A stretch of DNA of 64,000 nt from a virus. The stretch is taken from positions 64,001 to 128,000 of the IMG/VR virus record IMGVR_UViG_3300023179_000011; one strand, 5' to 3'. How positions within the stretch are numbered: position 1 is the first letter of the stretch; each line of letters begins with the position of its first letter. Shown here piece by piece: positions 6,818 to 61,460 of this stretch. The position numbers and the translations under genes were made by a program. The notes beneath the pieces are model-generated. The model searched no databases and was not told the origin of the DNA. It was given only the letters and a program-made list of their open reading frames with translations.

Positions 6818-6831
6818 GGTCCTCCGTGACC
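6818..6831 (-). promoter_or_regulatory. Putative CsrA/Rsm operator hairpin over the GNAT RBS
   Basis: mRNA GGUC-ACGGAG-GACC, 4 nt before AUG. Confidence 0.6.
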
Positions 6832-12800: not shown

Positions 12801-13045
12801 TTGAAAACTAACTCCTTCAATTTTGTTATCAATTCGCGCACACCCCGCCGGGTTGGCGCCGGCACTGCGCGCGCCGGCACTTCGCCCGGCTCAACGTTTT
12901 GAGAAGATAAGCCGCCCGACTTCTCGGCTAACTCGCTTCGACAGTATTCGAGGTAGAGTTGCCAGTTGTCGTAAGAATCTCTGTCTTCGGCTCGTTCGTA
13001 TGGGATGTAGGGTGGTGCGTCTGGGACTCTGTCGTTCCAGCCCAT
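12797..13045 (-). CDS. Hypothetical protein
   Basis: 82-aa ORF overlapping the csrA C-terminal extension in another frame; coupled to the downstream gene. Confidence 0.55.
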   Translation of the reverse strand: MGWNDRVPDAPPYIPYERAEDRDSYDNWQLYLEYCRSELAEKSGGLSSQNVEPGEVPARAVPAPTRRGVRELITKLKELVFK

Positions 13046-13218
13046 TGCTGTTTGTCCTTCTTTTTAGTTCCGCCAATTAACTCGCCCCGCACTATCGTTG
13101 TTGTTTGCGGCGCTGTTAAACCAATCTTGACTCGATCGCCTGTGATTCCCAAAACTTTCACAACGATTCCGTCGCCAATTACAACTTCTTCTTCCTTCTT
13201 CCTTGACAGTACAAGCAC
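12928..13218 (-). CDS. csrA: Carbon storage regulator CsrA/RsmA-family translational regulator
   Basis: MLVLSRKKEEEVVIGDGIVVKVLGITGDRVKIGLTAP..TIVRGEL: canonical CsrA fold, with the beta-1 residues and the Arg equivalent to E. coli R44 retained. Confidence 0.9.
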   Translation of the reverse strand: MLVLSRKKEEEVVIGDGIVVKVLGITGDRVKIGLTAPQTTTIVRGELIGGTKKKDKQQWAGTTESQTHHPTSHTNEPKTEILTTTGNSTSNTVEAS

Positions 13219-13228
13219 CGTGTCACCA

Positions 13229-13900
13229 TCATGATGTAGCTGAACCTTGTAACATTTTTACGACATACTCCGTGTTGCCGTTTTTTAGGTCCAGCGCGGT
13301 CAATTGTTTGATAAGTAAATTCGTTTTTAATCGAATCGACTGGTTGATGTCTTCTGTTTTGTCGGCTTCGAAATCGTAGACCGCGTTAAACATCGCCGGG
13401 TCGTCTGAAAAGTCTGTGATGTTGGGGCTGACCCGGGCAGCCCGCAGAGCAACGCGCAAGATATCTGGCGCGTTAATAATCCCTTCGCTGTCAAGCACTG
13501 CGCCGATATAACCGCGCACTTCGTCGGTAAACGGTTCGTTATCGTCATCTTCGGGCGGGCTGATGAGCAGCGCTTCGGTAATTCCCCACGCCGCCTCTTC
13601 GGCGTCAGCTGGATCCCACATATCGGGGCGGTATGTGTCGCCGCCCATCACGTTGCAGAACGTCACAAAGTCCGGCAGGCTTTTGAAAAACTTGTCGGTT
13701 GTGAGGATCTGAATTGCGACGAGGAGCTTATCGAGCGCAAGCTGCGGCAGTTCAACGTCGAACTCTTCCTCGATTTCGAGCGTGATTGTCGCCGGATCCC
13801 AGTCCAGCGCTTCGACGCCGAACTTATCCAGAAACAGAGTCAGTAGGACGCTCGCAAACGTCTCCCTGCTTTTCCAAGCTTCCTGCGCTATTGTCGACAT
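13229..13900 (-). CDS. Hypothetical acidic helical protein
   Basis: Start re-called to MSTIAQEAW; clean 223-aa ORF. Confidence 0.75.
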   Translation of the reverse strand: MSTIAQEAWKSRETFASVLLTLFLDKFGVEALDWDPATITLEIEEEFDVELPQLALDKLLVAIQILTTDKFFKSLPDFVTFCNVMGGDTYRPDMWDPADAEEAAWGITEALLISPPEDDDNEPFTDEVRGYIGAVLDSEGIINAPDILRVALRAARVSPNITDFSDDPAMFNAVYDFEADKTEDINQSIRLKTNLLIKQLTALDLKNGNTEYVVKMLQGSATS

Positions 13901-16573: not shown

Positions 16574-16753
16574 GCGTTAACTCCGTTGTAACGCGGTCGA
16601 GAAGGGCCGCTAATACGATATAGCAGCGACAATAAATATGCCGCGTTTTTGGCAAAAATTTAGCCGCTATTCGGAGTTCGCGAATTGCGAAAGTGCCTGT
16701 CATTGCAGGACTTACGGCGCAATAAGTCATGTTCTGGAAAATGGAAAATGCAA

Positions 16754-30351: not shown

Positions 30352-32205
30352 TCATGTTGCGCTGTAAATAATTCCGGTGACGCGCAATACGCCAATCTCT
30401 CCATAAACGCTGTCTTCAACGCGACCAATTGTGACTAATACTGTATCGCCTTCTTCCACGGCAAAAGAATCGCTTTCACGTTGAATGACGTGGTCGATGT
30501 ATAAGCTTGCCGCGGAGTTGAACGTCAGCGCTGTATCTGTGGTTGGTAATTCTTGTCCGCCCGCGATTCCGACTGGCGGCGCCGGCAATACACGACGCGT
30601 CATGTATAGCGACGGCATAATCTTTGCCTGCGTGGGCGTTCCGTCGCGTCCAAATAACTGGACGCTTATTTTCATTTGCAGATTGTCGCCTAGATTGCTG
30701 CCGGGCACGTTAAACCGTAGCCGCAGTAAAGACGCCTGTCCGCCCGGAAAACCTAAATACGGAATGTCCATATACAGGCGTTCGACGGTATCGCTTAGTC
30801 TGATGATCTGCGGCGAAAGCTCGCGCTCGACAAGCTGATCAGTGTAATCGATTTTTAGAACACCTTGATGCAGCGTAATTGGCTCTGTTGTTTGAATATC
30901 AAAAGCGTCTTTTTCTGCTTGCGTGAGCGTTCGCGGTGTTTCACGAGAACCAGTTATCGAGATTTGATTCGACAGCGTGAAAGCGCCTTCGGTAATCCAG
31001 CCGCGAGTAAGTTGGTGGCGGTTAATGACGCCTTTCAGCGCACGCCCGCCAATCGCTTCGGAAGCTGCGATTTGTAAGTCGAGATTTAATTGCAGGTCGC
31101 CGGTAGATGCCGCGTCATCCGCGCAGTTCGTAACGGCGATAGGGCTGGTGACGGTTGCAGCCGTTGGTGTGGGTTGCGTTTCTTCTTGTGTGCCGTCAAC
31201 ATCTTTGACTATGCTCGTCACTACGCTGCGGTCGTTTCCAGAGAGCATTCGCAAATAAACGACCGATACGCGCATGGTCTCGTAGCGCGGGCATTCGGCC
31301 GTGCCGGATGGGTGTGTTGTAGGTTCCGTAAATGGAACGTCACCTACGCAGTCGCTCATCCACCAAATGCCGTTCGTGTCACAAATAGCTAAGCCATTCG
31401 GACCTAGTGGAATTTCTGTGGCCCCTACGTGGTCCAAACCCTTATCCCACAACATCGCGACAGACTGGATCGGCAAGGGAGGCCATACGTTTGATAGCGC
31501 CGGATGTTTGCTGAGGTTGTAACCAAACACAGCGCCATTAGGTGCTTTACCGTTAAACACTGCGTGATCTGCCGGCAACCATCCAGCGTCGTTTTGCGTG
31601 GCTGCCTGCTCTGTAATTAAATCAAAACGATAGTGCGTGTGATCATCAATAAAGTCGCGGATGTGGGGCATAACCACAACGCGCGGGATTGTTGTGCAGC
31701 TGTCTTTTGGCCCCTGCACATGACACACACTCACAGTCACAGCCGGCCGTTGTTTTACGAGCTTTCCCGCTTCAGACGCGGACAAGTAATATCGCCCCGG
31801 AGTTATTGGGCCGACGATTGCGTTTGCCAGATCCGGGATATCGACGATCCCGCGAAGAACGATGTCGCCAAGCGTCTCTGACCGTTTTTTTAAGCAAATG
31901 CCGACACAGTCAGATGACGGTTGTACAACAAGCGTTTGTGTATTCGCGTCTGGCTCTACGGCTGCCAGCGCGGGTTCGTATCGTTTCTCAACCCAGTTCC
32001 AATAAACCGGCTGCCCGGGTAACACAGAGCTGCAAATTGTCGCATCGCTGTCGACAAGAATTTTTCCAAGTGCAGACGCGTCTAAACGATCTTTGAGATA
32101 ATCCGTGCGGTCTTCGAGCGTGCGGTCTGGGCGTGAAACGACACCAGCCTGTACGGGCTCGCCGGGATTGACGTGTTTAATATTGTGCAGCCAGTTACCG
32201 GACAT
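30352..32205 (-). CDS. Baseplate/fibre-attachment structural protein
   Basis: N-terminal V.PGEPV.AGV.SRP...L..RT.YLK..L motif typical of baseplate-anchored proteins, and a PGRYYLS...GKL module. Confidence 0.6.
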   Translation of the reverse strand: MSGNWLHNIKHVNPGEPVQAGVVSRPDRTLEDRTDYLKDRLDASALGKILVDSDATICSSVLPGQPVYWNWVEKRYEPALAAVEPDANTQTLVVQPSSDCVGICLKKRSETLGDIVLRGIVDIPDLANAIVGPITPGRYYLSASEAGKLVKQRPAVTVSVCHVQGPKDSCTTIPRVVVMPHIRDFIDDHTHYRFDLITEQAATQNDAGWLPADHAVFNGKAPNGAVFGYNLSKHPALSNVWPPLPIQSVAMLWDKGLDHVGATEIPLGPNGLAICDTNGIWWMSDCVGDVPFTEPTTHPSGTAECPRYETMRVSVVYLRMLSGNDRSVVTSIVKDVDGTQEETQPTPTAATVTSPIAVTNCADDAASTGDLQLNLDLQIAASEAIGGRALKGVINRHQLTRGWITEGAFTLSNQISITGSRETPRTLTQAEKDAFDIQTTEPITLHQGVLKIDYTDQLVERELSPQIIRLSDTVERLYMDIPYLGFPGGQASLLRLRFNVPGSNLGDNLQMKISVQLFGRDGTPTQAKIMPSLYMTRRVLPAPPVGIAGGQELPTTDTALTFNSAASLYIDHVIQRESDSFAVEEGDTVLVTIGRVEDSVYGEIGVLRVTGIIYSAT

Positions 32206-32229
32206 CCTTGTCCTCCGGCAGTTAGTTGA

Positions 32230-40630: not shown

Positions 40631-41095
40631 TTAATTTTTTGGCACAATGTTGAAACGGAGCGACCACTGGCCAACCAGTGTCTGCGGGTCCTGCAACTCT
40701 AAACGCATGCCAGTTAGAAACGCCCAAAACGTAGAGTTCGCGCAGTCACCAATTGTGACGGACATTTTGCCGTTTTTTTTGATTCGATTTTTTTGATAGA
40801 AGTCATAGACGTTACAGAGTTTTGCACTGTTAGCCCCGGGACACGGTTTTACAAAACCGAAGCCAGATACGGTTAGCTCGCCGACGCGGTCACCAAACGC
40901 GTACACGTAAATGAAATCATTGACCGTGTGAAGGAATTGATAATTACCGTTCAGTTCCAACGCGAAACCGCTGGTCGGCGCAGTTAACTGGCCGCCATTT
41001 ACATCGTTAAATTTGATTTTGAATACATCACCGGTGCAATTCTTGGGCTTGATAATTGCCACTGCCCCGGCGCATGGAGTAAAAGCTACTGGCAT
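40631..41095 (-). CDS. Tube-fold tail initiator-like protein
   Basis: Immediately after the tape measure; FIYVYAFGDRVGELTVSG resembles the tube motif YYVGNRRQGQCQM. Confidence 0.5.
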   Translation of the reverse strand: MPVAFTPCAGAVAIIKPKNCTGDVFKIKFNDVNGGQLTAPTSGFALELNGNYQFLHTVNDFIYVYAFGDRVGELTVSGFGFVKPCPGANSAKLCNVYDFYQKNRIKKNGKMSVTIGDCANSTFWAFLTGMRLELQDPQTLVGQWSLRFNIVPKN

Positions 41096-41098
41096 GTG

Positions 41099-44000
41099 TT
41101 ACTTTCCGTAGTTTGCGCCGGTACCGCCAGCCATGTCGACCGACGGCCCGTTATCTGGTGTATCTTCCATGCGATAACCGGTGGCAGCCAGCACGGCCTC
41201 TGAAAGTCCGTGCAGCGTCAACGTGCCGTTCACATTCATATCGCCGCCGCCGCCACCCGCGCCGCGCGCCGCTTTCGCGGAATCGTATTGCGCAATCGTG
41301 TCGCTGAGGTAGTTGTACCGGGCTTGGTCTTTGTCATCATCAAAATAGTCGCCGCCGCCGCGGATCCACCAGTGTTTTTTCTTTTTCTTTTCTAGCTCTT
41401 TGAGGCGGCCGCGCGCGGACTGAATCGGGTTTGGGCCGGCTTGCATGTCCAACAATGCCTGCTCAGCCACTAATCGCATGTGTGGTTTTTCAACAACTTG
41501 TTGCACAGATCCGTCTGCGCCAGTAATGTTTACTTTTTTCGCACCGCCACGATTGTTAAATTCTCTTTTTTCTTCTTCCGTGCCGTATCGTTCTACGTCG
41601 TGCGCGGCGTCTTTTTCGGTGTAGTTTGGGTTGTATGGAAAAAATACGCGCTCGGAAACATCTTGATTTCCGCCCGCATACGTCCATTCACTCTCGCCGC
41701 GAATTCGGCGCAGTGATAAAGACGTTCCCGGCATCTCACCCATTTTGTTAAACGGATCGTGTACGGTCAGTTTGTTTCCTATGCGAACGTTGTGTCGCAA
41801 CTTGCTTTGTCGGTCTGTAAGATCGTCATATCGCGCCTTGTCCTCGGCCGAATACTTCCACCGCCCCTGTTTTTTATTGCGGTCCGCGAGCGCGGCAAGC
41901 TCGGCATCAATTTGTGCAAGTTCGGTGTCGCGACTAACGGTGCGCGTAACTCCGGGCGGCGGGGCGTCAGATGCCGGCGCGTGCCCGTCGCGATTTAGCT
42001 GCTGTACCTGCTCTGGTGTAATGTTTTGCGACGAAACTCCCGCGCCTGTTTTACTTTCAGAAATGGCGGCATGAATTCGGCGCATGTTTGCAAGATCGTC
42101 GTCGGTCAGCTCTTTCATTTTTTTGACAAGCTCGGGCGGCGCGGACAGCGCTGTTTTAAACTGATCCATTGCGGTTTTTTGCGCTGCCGGATCCATTTTG
42201 TTGAAAAGTTTTACCGCGTCTGCCGCCGGCAGCGTTAGCAGTTGTTGTCTTTTTTCTTTGTCAGCAAACGCGGTCGCAAACGCTGCGCCCGTCGGATCTT
42301 TACCTACTTCGTCTAATACCGCTTGCTGGTCTGCGGTAACTTTTTCAGTGGCAGAGGCGACACCTTGTCCGTGGGCGCGTTTTGCTTCTTCAGCTATTTT
42401 TAACGCACTGTTTGTTCGGCGCACGATAGCGTCTTTGTCGCTACCTAGAACAGCCGTTAACTGTTTACGCGCTTCCGCCTTGGCTGTCTCTGGATCCATA
42501 CCCTCCATAACAAATTGATCGGTCAACTGCTGCGTCATACGACTTGTCATTATCAGCGCGCGATCTTCATCGGATTTTCCAAGCGTATCGTCCATGTTTA
42601 CGGCGACGTTTGACATGGCGAGGCTGATCTGCCGCAACCGCTTTTTGCGGTGTGTGTCAAACTGCGAGTCAGACATACCTTTTGGGCGCAATTTTTCGTA
42701 CTCGGCTTTGTCGTAATTCTTTTCGAGCGTGTCGTAAATGCTTTTGCCGACGTCAGCGGAAATACGATTTGAAGTTGCGGTTCCACGTTTTTGCGCTTTG
42801 GCGACATCAACCGGTGTCTGCTCTAAACCAGCGCCAGCCAGTCCGCCAATATCGCGCGCAACGCGCAACCCCTGTCTGTGCGCGCGAACTTCTTGTTTTT
42901 GCTCATCAGACAACGCGCCAAAACCGAAAAAGTTTCCAGCCATTTGTTTTTCGAGTGTTTCGGCGTCATCTGCCAGCATCGTTGTTGCAAATTTTTCAAT
43001 TTGTTCTGTTGTTGCTTTTTCGCCAAGAACTTTTTTTGCGGTAGCTCTAGCGGCCGCCATTACGTCTTCAGCTTTACCTGTGTTGTAACCGCGTATGATT
43101 ATGGAGGCGAGATCGCGCTGCCGCTGATTTTTTGCTTTTTCTGCGTCTGTGCTACCGGCGGCGGTATCTGCTGACTCCATCTTGGCCGCGCCGCGTAACT
43201 GCCCCAACTCGTCAGCCGTTAGTTTCTTGCCGGGATCGACGCCGGCCATAATTTTGAGTTGCTTGGCTTCGTTTCCGTCCGGGTTCTTTTGCGCCGCGTC
43301 AGCCAAAGTATCGATTTGTTTTTCAGTAACGCTTGCCTGCGTATACATACGCGCTGCCGCTACAAGCCCTTCTTGCATGTCGGGCGCGTAGCTCTGCAGC
43401 AGCGAATCTTCAGACGCGATTGCAAATAGGCGTTTGAGCGAGCCTTCTTGTATGCCGGCATTTTCGCTGGCTAGGTTTTCTAGTTCGTCGCCAAATCGTT
43501 GTGCAATCTTAGATTCGGTTCCGGCGCCGGCTATTTTAAATCGCGCAGCGCGGCGCTTGTTCATTTCTTCTTTTACGGCCGAGTCGGTAAGCATTTTTTT
43601 ATCATAGGATTGCCGCAATGCTGCTGAAGACACTCCCGTTATATCTTGCGCGTCTGTATCTATTTCTGAGATCGCTGTCAGCAGCCGTTCTTGCCTCTCC
43701 GCAGGTGTTTGGCCGTAAATTGCATTAAAAAATTGTTCTGCTTGGCGCTCAGCGTCTTTTTGTGCCATGCTGCCGCCGGGTTTGCTGGTAAAAACTTTGG
43801 TCAATTCTTCTTTTCCGCGCCGCTCCATTGTTTTAATACGTTCTTCCTGCGTCATGTCGGCCGTTTCTTCTAATAATATGCCCGTCATTTTATTTGCAAA
43901 ACTACCAGACAACCCACTGCGCAATTCCCGAAACTTCTCATCTGACATGCCAGCTGGCTTGAGGTTACGCACCGCTGCGCTGCGCAAACGTTCGCCGATT

Positions 44001-50687: not shown

Positions 50688-53600
50688 TCAGACAACTAAG
50701 TGCAGCTCAATGTTATTGAGCGGCGCCGGAACAACAAGGTCGAGCACGATTTCGATGCGGTCCTTGAGCAGAGGATGAATCTGCAGGGTACGGATCTCAC
50801 CAGAAATCAGCTGCGAGCCGAGTTCTTCTGTAGTGCCATTAGTCGAGAGGAAGTTAATCACACTCTTCACTTGGTACTCAAGAACCGAAAGCATGCCCGG
50901 CTGCGCGTTTGTGCGGCCGATGTACGGACGCAGGCGGCGATAGAACAGGTACGACATGCTGTCAACGTTACGACGAATCATTTCTTCGCGGCGGTTCAGA
51001 TCGAGGTTGTCGGTCGTGAGCGCGTGCCGCGTGTGCGGGGTGCCGTCACGATCTTCAGTCACAATCCAGACGCCAGCTTCAGCCATACGGTTCAACTGCG
51101 TTTCGTTGAGGTACTTGTAGGACCGCGAGAAGTCATCGAAACCAGCGACCTCGACGTTTGTCAGCGGCTGGTGCGGCACCACGCCGCTCACGAGGCCCGC
51201 GAGGGCCGCCGCGAGATAGTAACCGGGCTGGATCGTACCGGCTTCGCCGACCTGATCCGGCCACACAGCGCACACACGCCGGTTCGAGAGCGAACCACCT
51301 TGCTGCGCAATGTCTTCGACAATTTCGTTGCGGTTGCGGTTGTGCCAGATCTCGACGCGCTGCGGAACTGTTACCGCGGCGTCGGCGCCGGAGTACAGCA
51401 GCAGAGTCGATTCAGACACCACCTGATCAACGACATACTCTTCGTACTGCTCTTCGCCGAAGCCGTCTACGGCGTAGTTATAACGCACGATGTCGCCGGG
51501 GCGGACGTCATTTGTGATAAAGTAGCCGTTGCCCGACGTAACGGTAAGCCGCGTGTACTGCGTGTTCGTGGCGTTCGGATCGTCGGAGAGCGTAGCAAGA
51601 ACCGGCTCGTTTACCGTTTCGCCAAGCACACCTTTGATATTGACGCCTTCACCAACAACCTTTATAGTCGGCACCGCCTTGAGGGCGAAGAAGCCGGCCT
51701 TCCAGTTGTTCGCGTACTCGTTCGACTCGGCGCCGATGTGCGCAGCCCACAGGTTTTGCACCCAGCGGTCAAACGTCATCGGAACGAGGTTGTACAGGTC
51801 GTCGCGGCCCTTAAGCCGCTCAAGCACCTGCGTCCACTTGTCGAGATCCGGGCCGAGCGAACGACCGTCTTCGTCGTACTTCTCGGGATCGGCGACGGCG
51901 GTGTACTTTACAACGGTGCCGTTGCTGTTGCTGAGCGCCTTGTAAACGCCCCACTTCAGCGGGTTATCGGGATCGAGCTGGCCCTTGATTTGATCGAGAT
52001 CGGCGACGTCGCTGATCGAGTTGACCTGATCGGCCAGCTCAGACAGCCACTCGCGATACTCGACGTAAACTTTGCCAGACATGACAGGCAGCGGTTGCTC
52101 GGCGCCGGCGCTTGTCCACTCGGGGTGGTAAGCAACGATGCCTTCTTGCACGCAGATCTGCGTGTCTTCGTACCAGAAGTTGGTCATCGGAGCGTATCCG
52201 ATCCGATTCTTCGAGATCTGGATATCGTCCTTGATGAACAGCTTGAGGTCCATGTCCTTGCCGCTGATCAGCTGGCAGGTCGCTGTGGCTGTGGTGCCCC
52301 CCTCGCTGCCCGGAGCGGCGATCGTGATGGTCGGGGCGGCGGTATAACCAGCGCCACGATTGGTCACGGTGATGGCAACAACCTTACCCGCGTTCTCACC
52401 TGTGCCGAGTACCGCAACACCTGTGGCAGTTTGATTCTGCACAAGGTTGCCTGTCGGCGCAGAGAACGTAACTGTCGGGGGCGTCACATAGCCGGAACCG
52501 GCGTTTGTGATGCTAACCGGACCAACCTTGTCGACCGGCGCGCCGTCTTGTGTGAGCAGCGAGGTCGGAAGGTCGTCGCGCAGGATGAGCTTGCGCACCG
52601 GACCAGCCTTGCTCGAATTCACTGTGATGTACCACTTGTCACCCTTGCGCAGGCCGTCAACAGCGTAGTTATCTGCTTGATCGGTCGCGCCGGTGAAGCG
52701 AACCTTTACGCCGTTAGTGCCGATCGCTACGCCGACCGCGTTGAGGCCAACGCCGTCGCCAGTCACCTCGGTCGGACCCGAGAAGTCTAGACCCTTGACG
52801 GTGCGCACGGTGATCTCAGGGAGCTGAGCCCACGTACCGCCCTTGGTGCACTCGATCACGTACGTGTCGTTCTTCGCGCCAACGTACTTGGCCAGAATGT
52901 CAACCGCGCCGTTGACGCCGTTCACAGACTCTTCGGTCTGGTAGGGGCCGTCGGCTTCCGATACCGCCTTGACCTTTTCATAGGTCTGGTGAATGTCGAA
53001 CTTCCACTTCTGGCCAACGACGAAGTTGTCGTTGCCGGTCGTGGTGAAACGCACCGACAGGCCGCGCGTGCCGACAAAGGTCACGCCGTCAGCATCGTCG
53101 AAATCGTTCGGCTGGATTTCAGCCTGATCGTCAGTGCCGCTGGCCGAAGTGACACGCAGACGGGCAGCGTTGCAACCCGAAATTGTGCTCTTGATAACTT
53201 CGACAACGTACTCTTCTTCAACGTAGCCGTCGACAAGGCCGTCGTAATCATTGGCGCCTTCGTCTTCGGCTGTCAGCACCGTGACCGCAACAGCGTTATC
53301 AACACCCTCGATCTGCGTGACGGTTACGTCAACGCCGTTCGGGCTGGTAGCTGTGTAGCTGTCTTGATTGTTAACGTCGGCTGTGGCGGGCAGGATGCGC
53401 GACGGAACAAGATCGCTCGCGAAACCTGTGACGTATGTCTCAAGCACGGTCTCTTCGCAATCGTTGTCCGCGCTTACAGTGCGAAGTTGCACAACGTCAC
53501 CGAGCTGCACGTCGCGGTCGAGGAACGCACTCGAACGCGGGTAAGCTGCGCCGTTTGACTTGAACGACAGCGTGCTGGACTGAATCCAGTTAGTCTTACC

Positions 53601-53915
53601 GGGAACAGCTGTGATCGTCGTGTCGCCTTCGTCCATGTTGTGGACGTAGTACTGCAGCATCGCGTCGTCAACGTAAACCTTTACATAAGGCAGGTCGACA
53701 ACGGAGCCGGGCTTACGTTGCGGCCACGGATAGCAGGTATCGTTGAGACGATCGTATTGACCAAGAAGCGAGTGCTGCTTCTCGTCTGTATTACCATAGC
53801 GGTGAAGGATAGCGTGCGGACCAGCGATGTGGGCGCGCAGCGGCTCCGTGATCTCCGTGGGGACGATACGGAACTCTTGGAAAACGAGTACTTGCGGTTT
53901 TACGTAGCTCGACAT
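50688..53915 (-). CDS. Tail sheath protein
   Basis: N-terminal YVKPQVLVFQEF; C-terminal A.LAG..SG...HQPLTN...LN.MAEAGVWIV...RHALTT...E....R..D and L...APLN.I. Confidence 0.9.
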   Translation of the reverse strand: MSSYVKPQVLVFQEFRIVPTEITEPLRAHIAGPHAILHRYGNTDEKQHSLLGQYDRLNDTCYPWPQRKPGSVVDLPYVKVYVDDAMLQYYVHNMDEGDTTITAVPGKTNWIQSSTLSFKSNGAAYPRSSAFLDRDVQLGDVVQLRTVSADNDCEETVLETYVTGFASDLVPSRILPATADVNNQDSYTATSPNGVDVTVTQIEGVDNAVAVTVLTAEDEGANDYDGLVDGYVEEEYVVEVIKSTISGCNAARLRVTSASGTDDQAEIQPNDFDDADGVTFVGTRGLSVRFTTTGNDNFVVGQKWKFDIHQTYEKVKAVSEADGPYQTEESVNGVNGAVDILAKYVGAKNDTYVIECTKGGTWAQLPEITVRTVKGLDFSGPTEVTGDGVGLNAVGVAIGTNGVKVRFTGATDQADNYAVDGLRKGDKWYITVNSSKAGPVRKLILRDDLPTSLLTQDGAPVDKVGPVSITNAGSGYVTPPTVTFSAPTGNLVQNQTATGVAVLGTGENAGKVVAITVTNRGAGYTAAPTITIAAPGSEGGTTATATCQLISGKDMDLKLFIKDDIQISKNRIGYAPMTNFWYEDTQICVQEGIVAYHPEWTSAGAEQPLPVMSGKVYVEYREWLSELADQVNSISDVADLDQIKGQLDPDNPLKWGVYKALSNSNGTVVKYTAVADPEKYDEDGRSLGPDLDKWTQVLERLKGRDDLYNLVPMTFDRWVQNLWAAHIGAESNEYANNWKAGFFALKAVPTIKVVGEGVNIKGVLGETVNEPVLATLSDDPNATNTQYTRLTVTSGNGYFITNDVRPGDIVRYNYAVDGFGEEQYEEYVVDQVVSESTLLLYSGADAAVTVPQRVEIWHNRNRNEIVEDIAQQGGSLSNRRVCAVWPDQVGEAGTIQPGYYLAAALAGLVSGVVPHQPLTNVEVAGFDDFSRSYKYLNETQLNRMAEAGVWIVTEDRDGTPHTRHALTTDNLDLNRREEMIRRNVDSMSYLFYRRLRPYIGRTNAQPGMLSVLEYQVKSVINFLSTNGTTEELGSQLISGEIRTLQIHPLLKDRIEIVLDLVVPAPLNNIELHLVV

Positions 53916-53922
53916 ACGTCTC

Positions 53923-53934
53923 GGCCTCCGTGCC
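53923..53934 (-). promoter_or_regulatory. Putative CsrA operator hairpin over the sheath RBS
   Basis: mRNA GGC-ACGGAG-GCC, 7 nt before AUG. Confidence 0.6.
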
Positions 53935-54016
53935 TAAATTTACGTGTGTGCGGTAGGGCGTTCAGGTCGTAGTATACACAACTACGGGTTTGCAAAAAAA
54001 CACCCTTTGAAAATTC

Positions 54017-54727
54017 TTAACAAGACAATAAATCCGATGCCTTGAAGACAATCCGCTTTAGGCGCGGCGCATACGGCTGGAGCGACCAAGCTTCCTCGGC
54101 AACGTATGCAACAGTCACAGGGACGGCATATCCCTGAGCGACCTCTTGAACTTCTCCTATGCCGCCTACTTCGGCGACGTAAAAGCGAAACAAATCCATT
54201 TGCTCTCGGATCAGCGGCGAGAAGTTGATTAAAAACTTCAACACCTCTGTCGCGAGAAATTCGGTTTCAGCGCCGGCAGAACTTAGGCAGTATATGGTGT
54301 GGCTGCCTTCCCACATGCCGGCGTAACTTACTTCTCCAGTATAGAGGTTTGCGCCTGCAATGTCACCAATAGTTTGTTTTTGCCAGCGCCACCCATTTCG
54401 TTTAATAAGTATGGCCGGCCGTTTGTCCGCCGTGTTGGGCGACCACCGGGTAATACTTTCTATCAAAATACCGCCTTTGTTGTCACCGGCGTCGGCTGGG
54501 CGCCACGCGCCGAGCGTTTCTATATGCCGGCGAATACGCGGTTCCTCTATGTTTTCAGGGTCGGCGAAGTGCCCCATTAACAACTGCCGTAAAAAACCGG
54601 TCATGACGTGCGGACGCATTCCGTACGAACAAAGTGCGCTAACTTTGTCGACGCGGTTTTCTGGTTTACTGCCGGCAGGAAATTGCGCTTCAATTTCCGG
54701 CGGATTCGGATCGTCGCAAATACTCAC
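54017..54727 (-). CDS. Tail terminator/completion-like neck protein
   Basis: Lies between neck and sheath; RPAILIKRNGWRW and HTIYCLS...AETE motifs. Confidence 0.55.
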   Translation of the reverse strand: MSICDDPNPPEIEAQFPAGSKPENRVDKVSALCSYGMRPHVMTGFLRQLLMGHFADPENIEEPRIRRHIETLGAWRPADAGDNKGGILIESITRWSPNTADKRPAILIKRNGWRWQKQTIGDIAGANLYTGEVSYAGMWEGSHTIYCLSSAGAETEFLATEVLKFLINFSPLIREQMDLFRFYVAEVGGIGEVQEVAQGYAVPVTVAYVAEEAWSLQPYAPRLKRIVFKASDLLSC

Positions 54728-54842
54728 TGAACTGTTCCTTTAATTTTTGGTCGTAAACCTTGGCGGGAGCTGACAAACTTATTTTCGGAGGCAGTAACCG
54801 AATTTTGTCGAGTTTCGGTTCGGCTGGATTTTTACGCGCCAT
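54690..54842 (-). CDS. Possible 50-aa small protein
   Basis: ATG overlaps the upstream TAA (TAATG): MARKNPAEPKLDKIRLLPP...; fills an otherwise empty gap; below the track cutoff. Confidence 0.35.
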   Translation of the reverse strand: MARKNPAEPKLDKIRLLPPKISLSAPAKVYDQKLKEQFSEYLRRSESAGN

Positions 54843-56164
54843 TAGATGTCCCAAAAATTATCGGGAGCGCGTTGTTGCGCTGCCGGAGGATTGTTGTCGC
54901 ATATCTTAAATTCGTCCGCGGTCGTCAGTGTTTTGCCGTCTTCGGTCGCAAGCTGAAAACCGTCGCCGTCGGCTTCCGGCGCCACGATCGGCAATGTTGG
55001 GGCCCACGTGCACAGTTGCGGTTCGCCGACGCTGACCACATTAACAAAATCGACGTCTGGGCCGTACTCACCTAACTTCTCGTATACGATAGCATAATCA
55101 CCGGGGTCGAGCGCGATTGATTGCACCCACCGCCCGTTAGCAGTTGTGGATGTAACACCCAGCGCAAGGTTTTTTGGCGTATCAAACCCACTGACGTCAA
55201 ACACGTCTTTTGCATAAATATGAATAGTCGCGCCTTGAATCGGGCAGCCGTCTTCGGTTTTGTAAACAAACCTATCGTTACCGCCATAGTTTTGATCTAC
55301 CGGTACGGCGCCGCAGCCCTCAATCGGCAAAGTTGGTCCGACGCGCTCCGCAGGTTCTCCCCCGACCTCAATCGCATACGCCGTATTGCTGAACGGCAAC
55401 AGGCCCATTTTAATCTGATAGACAAGCGGCACGTTACGAATAGCGGCGGCAATCTGAATTGTTTCTACCAGCCAGCGTTCGTCGCTAGAACCGTTGACCC
55501 AGATGTCGTTTTTATTAATAGCCGGAAAACCTATAACACGCGCCGTGATATACGGGTTTTCTCGCGTTATGCCTTTTAATTGCGCGTCGACGCCTTCCTG
55601 AATCGTTTGCGTCGATAAGTCCCAACACTGCAGCGATAGCGGCGGGTGATAACCTACCTCAAAACCCGTGCCATTACAGACAGGACAATCAGAATCAAGA
55701 ACTTCTTGTGTTAATTGATCGCGGCAACGTGTGCACGGTTTTCCGAAACGAAACGGTTTTACTAGATAACCCGGCACAGCAACGTACTTAAACCGCAGCT
55801 GCTCTTTGCGGATAATCTCGCGAGCGATAACCCAGTCTTTTTCTGGAAGATCGCCGTAGCAGTTGGCGGCCTGTGAAACGTAAACACTAGTCGGCGTCGT
55901 TAAAACAACGCGATAATGATCAAGCAGGTCGTAGCCGGTTTCGCGCCATTCGGGGTCGTAGGCGTTGTAGCCGTTTAATACGGGCGGGCCAATGTTAACC
56001 CAGTCGACCGCGTCTCGAAGCCCGGTTTTGCCAAGCTGAAGTTGAAAAACATACGGCCCCGGATCGTTAAACGTGCGTTCAAGCTGCCACCAAACACGCG
56101 TGGTGCCGCGAACCATATGATCCACGGACACGCGGCGAAATGGAAAAATGCGAGACTGTGGCAT
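54842..56164 (-). CDS. Head-closure/neck protein with Zn ribbon and a C-terminal transthyretin-like Ig domain
   Basis: PCTRCRD...CPVCNGTGF..GY; C-terminal G.PIQGATIHIY...T.ANG.W...LDPGDY.IVY.K.G. Confidence 0.65.
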   Translation of the reverse strand: MPQSRIFPFRRVSVDHMVRGTTRVWWQLERTFNDPGPYVFQLQLGKTGLRDAVDWVNIGPPVLNGYNAYDPEWRETGYDLLDHYRVVLTTPTSVYVSQAANCYGDLPEKDWVIAREIIRKEQLRFKYVAVPGYLVKPFRFGKPCTRCRDQLTQEVLDSDCPVCNGTGFEVGYHPPLSLQCWDLSTQTIQEGVDAQLKGITRENPYITARVIGFPAINKNDIWVNGSSDERWLVETIQIAAAIRNVPLVYQIKMGLLPFSNTAYAIEVGGEPAERVGPTLPIEGCGAVPVDQNYGGNDRFVYKTEDGCPIQGATIHIYAKDVFDVSGFDTPKNLALGVTSTTANGRWVQSIALDPGDYAIVYEKLGEYGPDVDFVNVVSVGEPQLCTWAPTLPIVAPEADGDGFQLATEDGKTLTTADEFKICDNNPPAAQQRAPDNFWDI

Positions 56165-56216
56165 TGATGTTTTGAGCGGTTTGACCTAAAAAACTTGTGT
56201 AAATGCCAACATTTTA

Positions 56217-57209
56217 TCAATAGCGAATTCGCAGGGCGTCGGTGTAGGCCGAATACTTGTAAGTAGACGAAACCTCGCCATAACCGCCTTCGAGATTAAT
56301 GCTCGCTTTCGTGGCGCGTACCCATTCGCGATATGCCTGCCAGCGCATCTGTCCGGCGCGCTCGTAGCTAGATTCTTTGTTCTGGTCGTTTACGGTTAAG
56401 CCAGCCGCCGAATAGTCGAACTGGTTACGGCGGAATTGTTCGGCCACCATCATGAACAGGTTGGCGCAAATGCCTTCTAGCCAGTGATATCTAAACGGAA
56501 AAGACTGCGTGTTGTATACAGCGTCAATCGGCGGCGGTACTTCGTTCCAGTACATCACGGGGCGCGCAATCGCCAGCGCAATCTCAGCGTCGTCAAACAT
56601 TAAGTTATCAAGTAAGAAGCTCTCGCCCGGCGCTGAGTCGCGAAGATGCAGCCGGATCTCTGCGATGCTTGGCGGCCCTCCGGGCTGATTAACGCTAGAA
56701 AACGTACTACGCGCAATCACGACCGAAAACGTATTTGAAAAAACCACGCACGGCTGATTGCTGCTTTGCGCTGGAATACTTACAAGCGCCACTTCGCCGT
56801 AATAGACTCCCGGTACGCTTGTGGCGTTACTGGATAACGCAGCAGCTACTTTACCGGTTTCTGGTTCTACGATCGCGGCCGGCACCTCCACTGGCGGGTT
56901 TTGGTTGCCGAGAGAAAGCTGCTCTTTCAGGCGCAACACTACTTTAAAGTCTTGCGCGTTCGTGCACGCTGTAAGGCTAACAGGGCGACCTTCGCGATCG
57001 TGCATCGTCCATTCGATCGTGGCGCACTGACCCTGCGTCAGAGTAATAGCGCGCATTCTCGTTAGGATCGGCTGGCCGTTGACGCCAGAAATCGGGGCAC
57101 TAACGACGTTCTGCCCTACGCACGAAACCGGCGTAATAGCTTGGCCGTTCGTATTACCGTTGCAACACGGCACAATGGGGTGTTCGGCGGGTGTAGCGAT
57201 GACGACCAT
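56217..57209 (-). CDS. Head-tail adaptor with an N-terminal BppU-like Ig domain
   Basis: IR..LRD..P....L......DDAEI..AI......WNE.PP and NQFDYSAAGLTV.D..K motifs. Confidence 0.7.
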   Translation of the reverse strand: MVVIATPAEHPIVPCCNGNTNGQAITPVSCVGQNVVSAPISGVNGQPILTRMRAITLTQGQCATIEWTMHDREGRPVSLTACTNAQDFKVVLRLKEQLSLGNQNPPVEVPAAIVEPETGKVAAALSSNATSVPGVYYGEVALVSIPAQSSNQPCVVFSNTFSVVIARSTFSSVNQPGGPPSIAEIRLHLRDSAPGESFLLDNLMFDDAEIALAIARPVMYWNEVPPPIDAVYNTQSFPFRYHWLEGICANLFMMVAEQFRRNQFDYSAAGLTVNDQNKESSYERAGQMRWQAYREWVRATKASINLEGGYGEVSSTYKYSAYTDALRIRY

Positions 57210-57243
57210 GTGAGCCTCCGTGTTACACCGTCATTATAAAGAA

Positions 57244-57275
57244 AAACGGCTGGCCGCTTACGCAGCCAGCCGTTT
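57244..57275 (-). terminator. Rho-independent terminator at the end of the capsid operon
   Basis: AAACGGCTGGC / GCCAGCCGTTT stem followed by TTCTTT on the minus strand. Confidence 0.75.
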
Positions 57276-57301
57276 AGAGAGAAGTCCGACTGGGTTAAAA
57301 C

Positions 57302-57637
57302 TCAGTCCCAACCTTCCGGGGTCTTAGTGCCCAGAGTGTCTTCGCTAAGCTTCACCTGATCGATGCTACCATCGTCTTCGTCGGTGAGGTAAACGGCCGG
57401 CGACTTAGTGATAACCAGCGTGCCTTGCTCAAGTGCTTTTTCAAGCGCTTTGAAAGGACGCTGACTGCCGCGACCACCCTTGTAAGACGCATTAGCGCCA
57501 AGGGCCGCAACGAGGTCGCCGGGGACGGTGTACGTCTCGTTGTTTTCGAGACGCTTGCCGTGCGCACCGAGGAAGCCGAACACTCGGGCGGCGCCCGAAG
57601 TGTTCTTAACTGTCGTGTATAAACCGGGTACTGCCAT
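57302..57637 (-). CDS. Probable virion head protein
   Basis: In the capsid operon, with the same GC3-rich codon style as the MCP. Confidence 0.65.
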   Translation of the reverse strand: MAVPGLYTTVKNTSGAARVFGFLGAHGKRLENNETYTVPGDLVAALGANASYKGGRGSQRPFKALEKALEQGTLVITKSPAVYLTDEDDGSIDQVKLSEDTLGTKTPEGWD

Positions 57638-57656
57638 TGTTAGTTACTCCATTTCT

Positions 57657-58046
57657 TCAGGATGCGCTTTGCAGAGCCGCGGCAGCAGCAGCTTGCAGCG
57701 TCAGAACAGCCTGCGCAATCGCAGGTTGATCCGCCGCTACGCTCGCTACGTCGCCGTAAGCAGCCGCCTTTTCACCAGTGCCGCCAAAGCCCGCGGCGGC
57801 AAGCATCTCGTCCAGCTGCTGGTTGGCAGCCGAGAGCGAGGAAGCTTGCGCAGCCGCGACCTTTTCTTGCTCCGCCGTGTAGAGCACATGAAGCTTGGAA
57901 GCAGCAGACCACATTTCAGCGGCCTCGCTCTCCGAACGCGGCTGGATGCCGTGCGCGGCAAGCTTCTCGAAGAAATACGGCGCGGCAAGTTCCGACACAA
58001 TTGTGGCGTATGCTTGCTCAGCCGCTTCTTTAACAGTATCAGACAT
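57657..58046 (-). CDS. Ala-rich head-associated protein with KxA motifs
   Basis: AAGGAG RBS; VKEAA, EKVAA and EKAAA motifs. Confidence 0.7.
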   Translation of the reverse strand: MSDTVKEAAEQAYATIVSELAAPYFFEKLAAHGIQPRSESEAAEMWSAASKLHVLYTAEQEKVAAAQASSLSAANQQLDEMLAAAGFGGTGEKAAAYGDVASVAADQPAIAQAVLTLQAAAAAALQSAS

Positions 58047-58080
58047 AACGTGCTCCTTTGGGTTTAATTCCTACACGGCA

Positions 58081-59007
58081 TCACTTGAAGTTAACGCGAG
58101 CCAGACCGTTGGTATGGCCGAACGAGCCACCCGAAGTCTGATAGGCGAAGTACTCAAGCATGTAAGCTTCACGACGGATGTACATCGTGGTGGGCTCCAG
58201 CTCGTAGTTCTTGCCGATGAACTTCGGCGACGCGAACATGAACAGCGAATCATCGGGGACAAGATCGCGCTTGATCGTGACGATCCAGCGGCAGTTGAGG
58301 AAGTTAGTCTCCGCCCAACCGTTCTTGATGATGTCCTGCGAGAAGTCGCCGCCCATTTCGTCACGGCCGAACTTGAGGAGTTCCTTGATCGTGATGTTAT
58401 TCACGAGGCAGGTTTCAACCTCGAAGTGCGACGGCGTGCGGGGCATGACCTTCAGCGCGTCAACAAGGGTCTCACGGGTGATGCCGCCCGAGATCTCCTC
58501 GTACTGCACAACGCCGCTGGCGACGTTGGCAACACCCGGAGTCGGGAGCACGGCGTTGAAGGCGGCAATAAACTTGCCGTCCTCTTCAGCCAGCATGTCC
58601 TTGATCATGTTGTCGCTGAGGACCTGACGGATGTCGATCACGTACGTACGCAGCTCGTCGACGTCCTTCACAGCGCGGGGCGACACGATCCGGTCAAACA
58701 TGACGCGGTAGCGCGGGCCACGGATGTAGAAGTTAATCGGGAGCGTCGCAAACGGGAGCGACACAGCCGCCGGGGAATCGGGCTCCTTGTCCACAACCTT
58801 GACGGGCTTGTCAGTGTCAACCTGACGGTCAAGCTCGTCGTTGGTGATGGTCAGCGGCGGCATAATCCGCCGGTAGAACCCGTCTTCACGCATTTTGGTG
58901 CGCGTGAAGTCGTTAACCGCGTCGATGGCCTGCTTCTGCATGCCGGGGGTGTCAAGCTGCTCAAAGAGCGTTTCGTTGAGCAGTTGGATCTCTTGCTGAG
59001 TGGGCAT
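58081..59007 (-). CDS. Major capsid protein (HK97 fold inferred)
   Basis: About 308 aa after the decoration gene; REDGFYRRIMPP...PI...Y.V.F.RI.SP....D..EL...I..D..AEED..F; strongly GC3-biased; start re-called to the ATG at 59007 (GGAGG 8 nt upstream). Confidence 0.85.
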   Translation of the reverse strand: MPTQQEIQLLNETLFEQLDTPGMQKQAIDAVNDFTRTKMREDGFYRRIMPPLTITNDELDRQVDTDKPVKVVDKEPDSPAAVSLPFATLPINFYIRGPRYRVMFDRIVSPRAVKDVDELRTYVIDIRQVLSDNMIKDMLAEEDGKFIAAFNAVLPTPGVANVASGVVQYEEISGGITRETLVDALKVMPRTPSHFEVETCLVNNITIKELLKFGRDEMGGDFSQDIIKNGWAETNFLNCRWIVTIKRDLVPDDSLFMFASPKFIGKNYELEPTTMYIRREAYMLEYFAYQTSGGSFGHTNGLARVNFK

Positions 59008-59011
59008 TTTG

Positions 59012-59027
59012 GGAACCTCCATGTTCC
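59012..59027 (-). promoter_or_regulatory. Putative CsrA operator hairpin over the MCP RBS
   Basis: mRNA GGAAC-AUGGAG-GUUCC; exact match to ACANGGANGU. Confidence 0.65.
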
Positions 59028-59046
59028 TTAATTAGTTAGGGATAGG

Positions 59047-59625
59047 TCAGTCGATTGTGGCCGCAGTGCCCGCCGGCAGGTACACGCACCAGAAGGAAAG
59101 CGTGTCCACGCCATTGTGGTTCTTCGACGCGCCACTCGAAACAACACCGCAAACCGGGTTTACGTACTGCACGGCGTTGGCCTTCGTCAGCACACCCTCA
59201 ACGGCAGCGCCGCCAGTGGTGGGAGCAGTCAGAAGATCACCGGGGTTGTACGTCACCGCGCTACCGCCGGACGTCTTCACGTACTCGGTGGTGGCGATTT
59301 CATAACCACCGGTCGCAACAAGACCAGACAGCTTGCCCGAGGGCGAAACCGCTTGGTGCATGAAGTTACCGGCCGCTGTGGTACCCGGATTGCTGACGTC
59401 AGCATCCGTCGAACCGTTCAGCAAGAAGATCGCGACGCCCGTGGCCGACAGACCCGGAACGAACACGTCCTTACCGCCCTCTTTGGCGAGCGTTACGACG
59501 CGACCGCGCGGGACATCATACGTGACTGTGCTCGCCAGCTTGGCCGAGTAGTCAAGGGACGCCATATCGAACCAGCCCTTTTTAACGTCAAGGCCGTGTT
59601 CAAACATAAGATCAGGAGCAGGCAT
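59047..59625 (-). CDS. Capsid decoration/cement protein
   Basis: Beta-rich, immediately upstream of the MCP; GGYEIATTEY...Y.PGD.LT...G.L motif. Confidence 0.75.
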   Translation of the reverse strand: MPAPDLMFEHGLDVKKGWFDMASLDYSAKLASTVTYDVPRGRVVTLAKEGGKDVFVPGLSATGVAIFLLNGSTDADVSNPGTTAAGNFMHQAVSPSGKLSGLVATGGYEIATTEYVKTSGGSAVTYNPGDLLTAPTTGGAAVEGVLTKANAVQYVNPVCGVVSSGASKNHNGVDTLSFWCVYLPAGTAATID

Positions 59626-59629
59626 TGTT

Positions 59630-59643
59630 AGACCTCCGTGTCT
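59630..59643 (-). promoter_or_regulatory. Putative CsrA operator hairpin over the decoration-gene RBS
   Basis: mRNA AGAC-ACGGAG-GUCU; exact match to ACANGGANGU. Confidence 0.65.
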
Positions 59644-59680
59644 TTCTCAATTGGAAACGTGTTCCGTAGGGGGGACGAAC

Positions 59681-60106
59681 TCAGGTAGTGGGCGGGTTAA
59701 GACCAAGGCCCGTAAACAGCTTTACGTCGGAAGCCTTGAGGCGACCATCGCGGGCACCCACATACCCGCTCGTCAGACTGGTCGTCGGGTCGTAGCTGGC
59801 GGCCTTTGTGGCAACCGGCGTACCCAGACGAGCCATTTCAGCTGCGTTTTTATGCGCAGCTAATTTGATAACAAGTTCCATCGTGCGCACCGGATCTTGC
59901 AGGGCGGCGGCAAGCGCCTCCTTCTGGTGCGCCTCGATCCGCTCGTTTTCCACGCACGCCTTGACGGCTTCGGGGATCAGGTGAGCCAGCTTTTCGCTGA
60001 CTTCAACCTGCGCCTTTTCGGCGGCGGCGGCTTTGGTCATCGCCGCATCGGAATAACCGATGTAGTCGATGATCTTATGTACGAGCGCGTTATTTTCGGT
60101 AGACAT
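59681..60106 (-). CDS. Head-associated helical protein with KxA motifs
   Basis: ACACGGAGGT RBS; TKAAA and TKAAS motifs. Confidence 0.7.
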   Translation of the reverse strand: MSTENNALVHKIIDYIGYSDAAMTKAAAAEKAQVEVSEKLAHLIPEAVKACVENERIEAHQKEALAAALQDPVRTMELVIKLAAHKNAAEMARLGTPVATKAASYDPTTSLTSGYVGARDGRLKASDVKLFTGLGLNPPTT

Positions 60107-60122
60107 TAAAACCTCCGTGTGA

Positions 60123-61460
60123 TCAACGATTCACGAGTTCGAGAACGTGCTGCTTCATCATGTCCCGCAGCTGGCGCGAACGCTTTGTGCGGGCTTCTTT
60201 AACTTGGAACCTGCCAGCACGCTTAAAGTTTACAACAGCGCGACCGATGGCGTCTAAATCTTTAGCGGCAGCCATCTTCGGTTCTTCCATCGGCGGAGCA
60301 GCTTCAGGGGCGGGAGCGCCACCAGCAGCGTCGCCGCCGTCGGCGCCAGACAGCGCCTGCAGCAGAGCTTCCGGCGGAATGCCAAGTTCTTCTAACGCCA
60401 TCGCCAGCTCTTGCACGGCCTCGTCTTCCGACGGTTCGCCGCCGCCTACAGCAGCCGGGTCCATATCGCCGCCGCCTTCGGCGCCCATCATGGCTTCGAG
60501 CCCGGCGGGCGCGGCGTCAGCAGCCGGCGCGTCGCTGGCGCCAGAAGCAGCGTCTTCAGGCGCGGAGTGGTCCTCGCCTTCAGCGGCCTCTTCGGTCGGA
60601 TCAGCAGCCGCGGCTTTGGAATTCAGAAAACCGATGAACAGGTCAGCCATCTCGTCGGCTTCGCGAATCGTGTTAGCGCACACTTCACGAACAGACGCCT
60701 CAGCGGCTTCTTTGTTTATGCCGAGCTGCGCAGCAAGCTCGTAGCCAGCCTTGAACGCGGCAGCCTTACCCTCGCGAAGAGCAGCAAGATCAGAACCCTC
60801 GATCTTGCCGTTATCGTTTACGTCGAGCTTGTGCTGGTCGCCTTTGAGGTTGCTGCCGACGTGCTCGCTTCTCTCTTCAGCGGGGGTTTCTTTTTTTTCT
60901 TCGGCTTTTTCTTTTAGAAAAGCCGGCATCTCGGCCGCCTTCTCGTTGTTCAGTTTGCTAGTGCCGAAGTTAATGAGGTTGGCCAGAATGTCGTTACCGA
61001 GGGTGCCGGCACGTTCGCGGGCTTCCTTGAACGTAACCGAGCTGTACTTCTCGCCGTCATTGGCCTTGACCGGCGACGACGTGCCCGGGTCATCCTTATC
61101 ACCCTTGAAATCTTTTTCATTGGCCGGATCTTCACCGGTCGCTTTGGCAGAGACACCGATGTTCGTCTGCACTTCGTCTTGACGACCTTCTTGCGACATC
61201 TCCGGTGTGTTGTCTACAGCAAGAGCGCCCTGCTGCTTCTTGATGTCAGCCTCATACTCGCTTGCGCGCGCACCAGTCGAAGCGTTCTGCACGCCATTGT
61301 CGGCGCTAGTCGTCGGGTGCGAGGAGGCGCCTTGGTATCCGCCCGGATCAGCAGGCACGGGGCCGGCAGACTTCTCAGCCGCAGTCTTTACAGGACTCTG
61401 CGCAATCTCAGCGGCAAGAGCATTAAGTTGATCGAACAGTGAACGTTGCATCCGTGCCAT
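60123..61460 (-). CDS. Scaffold-like / internal head protein
   Basis: Low-complexity, acidic and Ala-rich; between protease and capsid genes; several KxA motifs. Confidence 0.65.
   Translation of the reverse strand: MARMQRSLFDQLNALAAEIAQSPVKTAAEKSAGPVPADPGGYQGASSHPTTSADNGVQNASTGARASEYEADIKKQQGALAVDNTPEMSQEGRQDEVQTNIGVSAKATGEDPANEKDFKGDKDDPGTSSPVKANDGEKYSSVTFKEARERAGTLGNDILANLINFGTSKLNNEKAAEMPAFLKEKAEEKKETPAEERSEHVGSNLKGDQHKLDVNDNGKIEGSDLAALREGKAAAFKAGYELAAQLGINKEAAEASVREVCANTIREADEMADLFIGFLNSKAAAADPTEEAAEGEDHSAPEDAASGASDAPAADAAPAGLEAMMGAEGGGDMDPAAVGGGEPSEDEAVQELAMALEELGIPPEALLQALSGADGGDAAGGAPAPEAAPPMEEPKMAAAKDLDAIGRAVVNFKRAGRFQVKEARTKRSRQLRDMMKQHVLELVNR

Follow-up and report, generated by a model that had tools for sequence, protein, structure and literature searches.

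We analysed a 64,000-nucleotide window (bases 64001-128000) of the 199,845-bp virus record IMGVR_UViG_3300023179_000011, in which a phage-borne gene of the csrA family is accompanied by CsrA-type hairpins on the ribosome-binding sites (RBS) of the phage's own genes. Besides csrA, the window contains the genes of the major capsid protein (MCP), its upstream neighbour, a tail-sheath-like protein and a GNAT acetyltransferase, and in each of these four the Shine-Dalgarno (SD) sequence lies in the loop of a short stem (Table 1). Genes were called with a crude caller of our own, which used codon-bias scoring and greedy tiling and picked the start by SD score; it returned 231 genes genome-wide, of which 223 are encoded by the minus strand. 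The GC content is 53%. Coordinates refer to the window unless they are given as genome positions, and G numbers denote whole genomes, G000 being this phage.

Features of the window

The presence of csrA, claimed in an earlier note made from the sequence alone, was confirmed. The PF02599 match covers residues 1-48 and scored 70.5 bits against a curated cut-off of 27, while a phage-family hidden Markov model (HMM) built in this analysis gave 94.7 bits. The product also matched phrog_9500, 'CsrA-like regulator' (E 2.5e-13), and aligned with RsmE/CsrA chains of the PDB (2JPP RsmE, E 4e-8). The RNA-contact residues of E. coli CsrA lie on strands beta1 and beta5 and comprise L2, L4, R6/R7, V40, V42, R44 and I47 (in part from PMC7652899). 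In the phage protein L2, L4, R6 and R44 are identical to RsmE/CsrA, and K7, T40, I42 and L47 are conservative. The domain (residues 1-48) is followed by a Thr/Ser-rich tail. In many relatives CsrA ends in a basic stretch and then a conserved G-L/V-E-R-P/Q/S motif (loci L067, L069, L071, L075-L077, L079, L080 and L082), which could be a partner-binding site and is missing from the tail of the 96-aa protein of the window. The GTG of csrA lies 10 nt past the TGA of an upstream 223-aa gene with no known function (13219-13231), suggesting co-transcription and possibly translational coupling.

Table 1. Coordinates of csrA, of the hairpins and linear sites, and of the genes that follow them in the window
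Feature	Coordinates	Strand	Details
csrA	12928..13218	-	96 aa, GTG start; PF02599 E 1.1e-19
MCP SD hairpin GGAAC-AUGGAG-GUUCC	59012..59027	-	-5.8 kcal/mol; 7 nt before ATG (59007)
MCP gene	58081-59007	-	tblastn E 5e-23 to annotated MCP of Salmonella phage Arash
Capsid-neighbour SD hairpin AGAC-ACGGAG-GUCU	59630..59643	-	-3.2 kcal/mol
192-aa gene directly upstream of MCP	59047-59625	-	'decoration' label from position only
Sheath SD hairpin GGC-ACGGAG-GCC	53923..53934	-	-4.1 kcal/mol
1075-aa tail-sheath-like gene	50688-53915	-	tail-sheath PHROGs at C-terminus, E 8e-10
GNAT SD hairpin GGUC-ACGGAG-GACC	6818..6831	-	-8.6 kcal/mol including outer helix
150-aa GNAT acetyltransferase gene	6361-6813	-	
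3-bp hairpin ACU-ACGGAA-AGU	41101..41112	-	RBS of 154-aa gene 40631-41095, 7 nt before ATG
Hairpin GGAC-AAGGAU-GUCC	32200..32213	-	loop and 3' arm hold ATG of 617-aa gene 30352-32205
Linear CACGGAGG word, 2-bp stem only	60111..60120	-	RBS of 141-aa head-module gene 59681-60106; no fold
Linear CACGGAGG word, closing C-G pair only	57215..57222	-	RBS of 330-aa gene 56217-57209; no fold

All the sequences cited in the earlier note were found in place on the minus strand, and the four strong hairpins (MCP, 192-aa gene, sheath and GNAT) folded as it had proposed, each being folded alone. When 110-nt contexts were folded, the small hairpins were not always kept, as expected for marginal stems, and this outcome was not used either way. 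Its weaker sites fared unevenly: a true 3-bp hairpin was found at 41101-41112, but the sites before the 141-aa and 330-aa genes remained unfolded and no stem was present at 16581-16586. The word before the 330-aa gene is not conserved among orthologues; orthologues of the 141-aa gene show GUC-ACGGAG-GUUU-type and GAUC-AUGGAG-GAUU-type contexts (G019, G022). An additional hairpin, at 32200..32213, overlaps a GGAGG SD with its 5' arm. The gene names of the note are supported for MCP (tblastn) and sheath (PHROGs), whereas 'decoration', 'adaptor' and 'head gene' had been assigned from position alone.

Further hairpins occur outside the window, at genome positions 185120 (UGUC-ACGGAG-GACA, PD-(D/E)XK nuclease), 133050 (CAGC-AUGGAG-GCUG, 793 aa), 135969, 17773, 3063 and 182984. 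The leader at genome ~153340-153390 (minus strand; L093:5340-5390) carries two, CAA-AAGGAU-UUG and CUGA-ACGGAU-UCAG, lying 27 nt apart, the second of them 8 nt before an ATG. The pair has the dual-site arrangement classically associated with a CsrA dimer, the criterion for bridging being two sites 10-63 nt apart. Clear dual hairpins were present in some leaders (this one and that of a 232-aa gene), and other leaders showed one evident site. The earlier note had described the targets as high-copy virion genes; capsid and sheath genes are indeed included, but the set is wider and comprises GNAT, PD-(D/E)XK nuclease, thioredoxin-like, HD-like and SEC-C-motif proteins together with several unknowns. 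A hairpin at the primase gene (loop GAGGAG), which lacks the loop A, was set aside as a likely chance match.

Two ACGGAC hexaloops on stems of 6 and 9 bp were observed away from ribosome sites, at genome positions 63590 (410 nt before the window) and 146359 (L092:18359). Contigs from RNA libraries of four freshwater studies (90-99% alike) cover the MCP gene, the 192-aa gene, the 141-aa gene and the start of the sheath gene (53835-54313, 57600-60300), and one of them, 1.5 kb long, spans both head-module hairpins. DNA carry-over is possible in such contigs, which are silent on level, ends and regulation, and they were given no weight.

Enrichment, loop register and covariation of the hairpins

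Hairpins were defined as an NNGGAG hexaloop closed by at least three Watson-Crick pairs. Across the whole genome, 10 of the 89 GGAG words at an RBS met this definition, compared with 16/688 (2.3%) of the other GGAG words (Fisher p 2.7e-4). A permutation null, in which the 3' flanks were swapped among the same sites so that position-specific composition was kept, gave a mean of 1.99 against the 10 observed (p 0.0002). Under a wider ANGGAN definition 38 hairpins were counted genome-wide, with a coding to non-coding strand ratio of 36:2, and hairpins made up 15/98 leader motifs versus 3.2% elsewhere.

The position of the loop was evaluated by scanning 24 registers around the RBS GGAG in six csrA-carrying genomes. 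Only the NNGGAG register, in which two loop bases precede GGAG and none follows it, was enriched (75/605 versus a null of 11.2); two other raised registers reflected these hairpins again, with the reading shifted outward by one or two pairs. Loop position 1 was A in 63 of these 75 hairpins (84%) and in 37% of other ribosome sites, the closing pair was C-G in 55/75, and stems were 3-6 bp long. The resulting consensus, C-ANGGAG-G, is the CsrA/RsmE CANGGANG site, which was present in 16.3% of the GGA leaders versus 2.6% genome-wide. The CA preceding NGGAGG occurred in 16/27 GGAGG-type RBS and in 6/62 RBS of the GGAGH type (genome-wide), and the loop GGAG mostly preceded the chosen start by 5-10 nt (mode 6). 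The sites thus combine a GGA in a hexaloop, a CANGGANG flank with C-G closure, and overlap with the SD or the start codon.

Conservation was assessed on the MCP leader, for which 64 loci with 56-100% MCP identity were retrieved from IMG/VR. The hairpin holds down to about 70% identity and its loop is always A-N-GGAG, while the stem varies among GGAAC/GUUCC, AGAAC/GUUCU, AAGAC/GUCUU, GGAC/GUCC, GCAC/GUGC, UAAC/GUUA, AAAC/GUUU, UUC/GAA, CGAUC/GAUCG and GAC/GUC. In the 35 distinct sequences compensatory changes were found at all five stem pairs, and paired cells amounted to 85.7% against 64.3% in shuffled data. The covariation score of 0.483 (0.132 for the shuffled counterpart) was reached by 0/500 shuffles, and the signal collapsed once the partner columns were slid. 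Stems of different sequence were likewise found in orthologues of the 192-aa gene (UUAGAC/GUCUAA, UAAGAC/GUCUUA, GUGAAC/GUUCAC, UUGUC/GACAA, UUC/GAA) and, in nearer relatives, of the sheath gene (AGGC/GCCU, UCAGC/GCUGA). Orthologues of the 192-aa gene in csrA-less genomes showed no stem.

Hairpins of this kind might be protein-independent structures that either stabilise highly expressed messages or keep a strong SD exposed in the loop. Such a role would suit the shortness of the stems and the unpaired state of GGAG, and also the fact that the genes bearing them hold the strongest SD words while many other genes have weak ones. A protein-independent structure gives no reason, however, for a loop fixed at six nucleotides, for the preference for A at its first position or for the C-G closure. 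Moreover, the orthologues of the MCP, capsid-neighbour and sheath genes are hairpin-free in csrA-less relatives, although their expression should be equally high. We regard this explanation as quite improbable.

Co-occurrence of hairpins and csrA in relatives

Ten relatives were fetched whole and processed by the same pipeline. Among the 18 records at least 90% complete, 15 contained PF02599; those lacking it are the three most distant relatives, and their MCP leaders are hairpin-free. Hairpins were enriched among the RBS GGAG words of the csrA-carrying genomes G000 (10/89), G019 (17/90), G022 (9/130), G028 (9/80), G030 (21/160) and G027 (9/56), with permutation p <=0.0006 in each case. The csrA-less genomes G036, G037 and G038, which form the outgroup, gave 4/138, 1/145 and 0/104, none of them significant. 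Carriers and csrA-less genomes overlap in GC content. With the wider definition, 7/7 csrA carriers were enriched (p 0.019 to 1e-15) and 0/4 csrA-less genomes.

A contrast independent of the outgroup was provided by G032, a csrA-less genome which, in the MCP tree, is nested with two carriers, G030 and G033. No CsrA was detected in G032 even by the unfiltered family-specific HMM, and the genes flanking csrA in G030 sit adjacent to each other there. Hairpins in G032 numbered 2/85 against a null of 1.4, and about 9 of the 12 orthologous hairpins of its sister G030 are gone.

The expectations of the earlier note were therefore borne out on three counts. Enrichment over background was strong and limited to one loop register, the stems covaried in relatives, with all five pairs of the MCP leader involved, and the four csrA-less genomes were without enrichment, the nested G032 having lost most of the orthologous hairpins. 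Since the hypothesis survived the tests of enrichment, covariation and co-occurrence, the sequence data show that the hairpins are under selection and make their link to a CsrA-family reader well supported.

That reader might be the CsrA of the host, the phage gene serving another purpose such as host takeover or defence suppression and both traits tracking Csr-positive hosts. The presence of csrA in phage and in host is indeed correlated across phages (PMC8450108). Furthermore, 12.8% of the GGA leaders of G032 still show the linear CANGGANG word, and 2-3 hairpins are retained there without csrA (among them UGCA-AAGGAG-UGCA and UUUC-AUGGAG-GAAA), which indicates that another reader, e.g., host CsrA, may exist; this residual signal could reflect either a recent loss of csrA or a second reader. 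The sisters G030 and G032, however, are similar in GC content but unlike each other with respect to csrA as well as hairpins. The RBS of csrA itself lies within an AAGGAG hexaloop hairpin in three high-GC relatives, G027, G031 and G033 (only a 2-bp version is present in G030), suggesting autoregulation of the phage gene.

Other phages carrying csrA, found by tblastn with the G030 CsrA orthologue, also bear on this point. Hexaloop hairpins were at null level in four phages unrelated to this lineage, namely F116 of Pseudomonas (2/42), PTXU04 of E. coli (1/46), the Vibrio phage 219E41.2 (0/24) and Dartukuta (1/30), and the trait thus appears specific to the present lineage. These phages infect CsrA-positive hosts, so a Csr-positive host together with a phage csrA is not sufficient for hairpins to arise. 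A role of host CsrA as the reader in place of the phage protein is consequently judged unlikely.

A different phage factor might recognise ANGGAG, such as another RNA-binding protein or an endoribonuclease that cuts GGAG as RegB does in phage T4, where this enzyme cleaves GGAG within SD sequences. In tblastn searches none of the remaining proteins of the genome shared the phyletic profile of csrA (all carriers and no non-carriers), but four come close to it (5/6 carriers, 0/4 non-carriers), three of unknown function and one with an AAA fragment. Homologues of RegB (PF10715) and RegA (PF01818) were not found in five genomes, in a search for which the control genomes could not serve as positives. 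The motif matches the specificity of CsrA base for base and the csrA gene is present, which makes a further factor very unlikely as the reader.

As regards the origin of this uncultured phage, several studies of lakes and other freshwater have yielded metagenomes that contain the record and close relatives. A nucleotide search with 8 kb against GenBank phages gave zero matches, and the nearest isolates reach only about 28% MCP identity. Assignment of a host from metagenome-assembled genome (MAG) bins was rejected, as the bins of the relatives were inconsistent (Aquaspirillum, Nanopelagicales, Nannocystaceae, Phycisphaerae, Gemmataceae and Methylococcales); the conflicting labels are probably due to mis-binned viral contigs. 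Loci L183-L190, which place relatives in bins of six unrelated bacterial lineages, are a warning of such contigs in these bins. Outside the window, at genome 181274-181630 on the minus strand, a tmRNA gene was detected with Rfam RF00023 (149.5 bits) and was not called by ARAGORN; as read from the alignment, it encodes a short tag ending in ..LAIAA. Four tRNA genes adjoin it, and seven tRNAs were counted in the genome.

Proposed mechanism and comparison with known regulators

Our proposal is that the SD hairpins are bound by the phage CsrA, which would most likely repress translation or set its timing; we assign this reading a probability of about 0.65. The system would constitute a self-contained post-transcriptional regulon run by the phage. 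The CsrA-family protein, expected to be a dimer from knowledge of the family, would recognise an A-N-G-G-A-G hexaloop closed by C-G on a stem of 3-6 bp, the loop being the SD of about 10-15 phage genes that include MCP, its upstream neighbour, the sheath, several enzymes and more head-module genes. Once bound, CsrA would keep the 30S subunit from the site, making repression the most likely effect, while activation or message protection is possible. The translation of very strong GGAGG sites would then be delayed or capped until accumulating message, or some antagonist, has titrated CsrA. As the targets hold the strongest SD words of the genome, a brake or timer on very efficient sites is favoured. 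Both the binding and its effect on the timing or dose of translation are drawn by analogy with bacterial CsrA, and we infer that the phage protein and not host CsrA reads the hairpins; the host protein could share or take over this role.

Several observations weigh against this proposal, in addition to the CANGGANG leaders and hairpins kept by G032. Many leaders contain a single clear GGA site, although full repression by CsrA often uses two (PMC7652899), and the RBS of csrA in this genome is without such a hairpin. In the carrier G040 enrichment is weak (5/91, p 0.025) and the MCP hairpin is absent. The co-occurrence of csrA and hairpins rests on two evolutionary contrasts only, the gene starts come from the crude caller, and repression of the most-needed virion proteins is not obviously useful.

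A phage lineage with cis sites on its own RBS, covarying in relatives and decaying upon loss of csrA, suggests a concrete and testable function for phage csrA. The phage would hold a portable regulator-plus-operator set governing the translation of virion genes. If confirmed, this would represent a new class of viral translational control beside RegA and the coat-protein operators, provide natural graded sets of CsrA operators for synthetic biology, and explain the retention of csrA in large phages.

Phage csrA genes have been documented, e.g., in F116, DC1 and PTXU04, and catalogued since 2020 with an assumed role in host manipulation (PMC7366521, PMC8450108, PMC11879866). In 2025 the role of phage csrA was called untested, and knock-down of csrA in PTXU04 led to small plaques (PMC11879866). 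The gene described here belongs to the same family and is likewise phage-borne; the earlier reports, however, proposed host manipulation and described no phage-borne binding sites, whereas in this lineage the sites lie on the phage's own RBS. In the full-text literature covered, from which subscription journals are largely missing, we found no description of a phage whose own genes bear CsrA-type operators.

The closest known counterparts are the operators of bacterial CsrA, RsmA and RsmE (RsmE-hcnA in 2JPP, CsrA-glgC and CsrA-cstA), with which the phage sites share the GGA in a hexaloop, the A at loop position 1, the C-G closure, the short stem and the overlap with the SD. The phage protein, too, is of the CsrA family and has retained the residues that contact RNA. 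At the established targets glgC, cstA, hag and hcnA, initiation is repressed because the loop-bound dimer covers the SD (PMC7652899). The consensus selected in vitro by SELEX is RUACARGGAUGU, with ACA and GGA invariant; a loop of six nucleotides closed by the AC/GU pairs was seen in 44 of the 55 ligands, and stems mostly comprised no more than four pairs (PMC7652899). The phage site matches the SELEX/RsmE site base for base except at loop position 6, which is G, and the phage loop thus doubles as a full GGAG(G) SD. Unlike the bacterial operators, many phage leaders have a single site, and regulator and targets are both viral, the targets being the virus's own genes. No Csr/Rsm sponge RNA family of Rfam was detected at gathering score in the whole genome, and the hairpin scan revealed no intergenic GGA-hairpin cluster, although a novel sponge is still possible.

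The CsrA-FliW-Hag system of Bacillus subtilis offers a second parallel, as there too the SD blocked by CsrA belongs to the message of a structural subunit made in very high copy number; the phage differs in having many targets and not one. A C-terminally extended CsrA suggests a protein antagonist (PMC7652899). By the same logic, a virion component or small phage protein might bind the variable tail of CsrA and free the capsid, capsid-neighbour and sheath messages while particles are being built. We consider such an assembly-coupled feedback a distinctly improbable extension of the proposed regulon; if it were true, subunit stoichiometry would be set at translation, independently of the host. 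FliW (PF02623) was absent from G000, G019, G022, G027 and G030, in a search that detected its positive controls.

Finally, phage translational repressors with operators at the RBS are known from the RegA regulon of T4, where RegA controls many genes, and from the coat proteins of MS2 and Qbeta, which act on the replicase hairpin. In these systems, as in the one proposed here, a phage protein acts on RBS or hairpin operators of its own messages and thereby times or doses their translation. The phage CsrA would nevertheless differ from RegA and the coat proteins in belonging to an unrelated protein family and in using as its operator a bacterial CsrA site.

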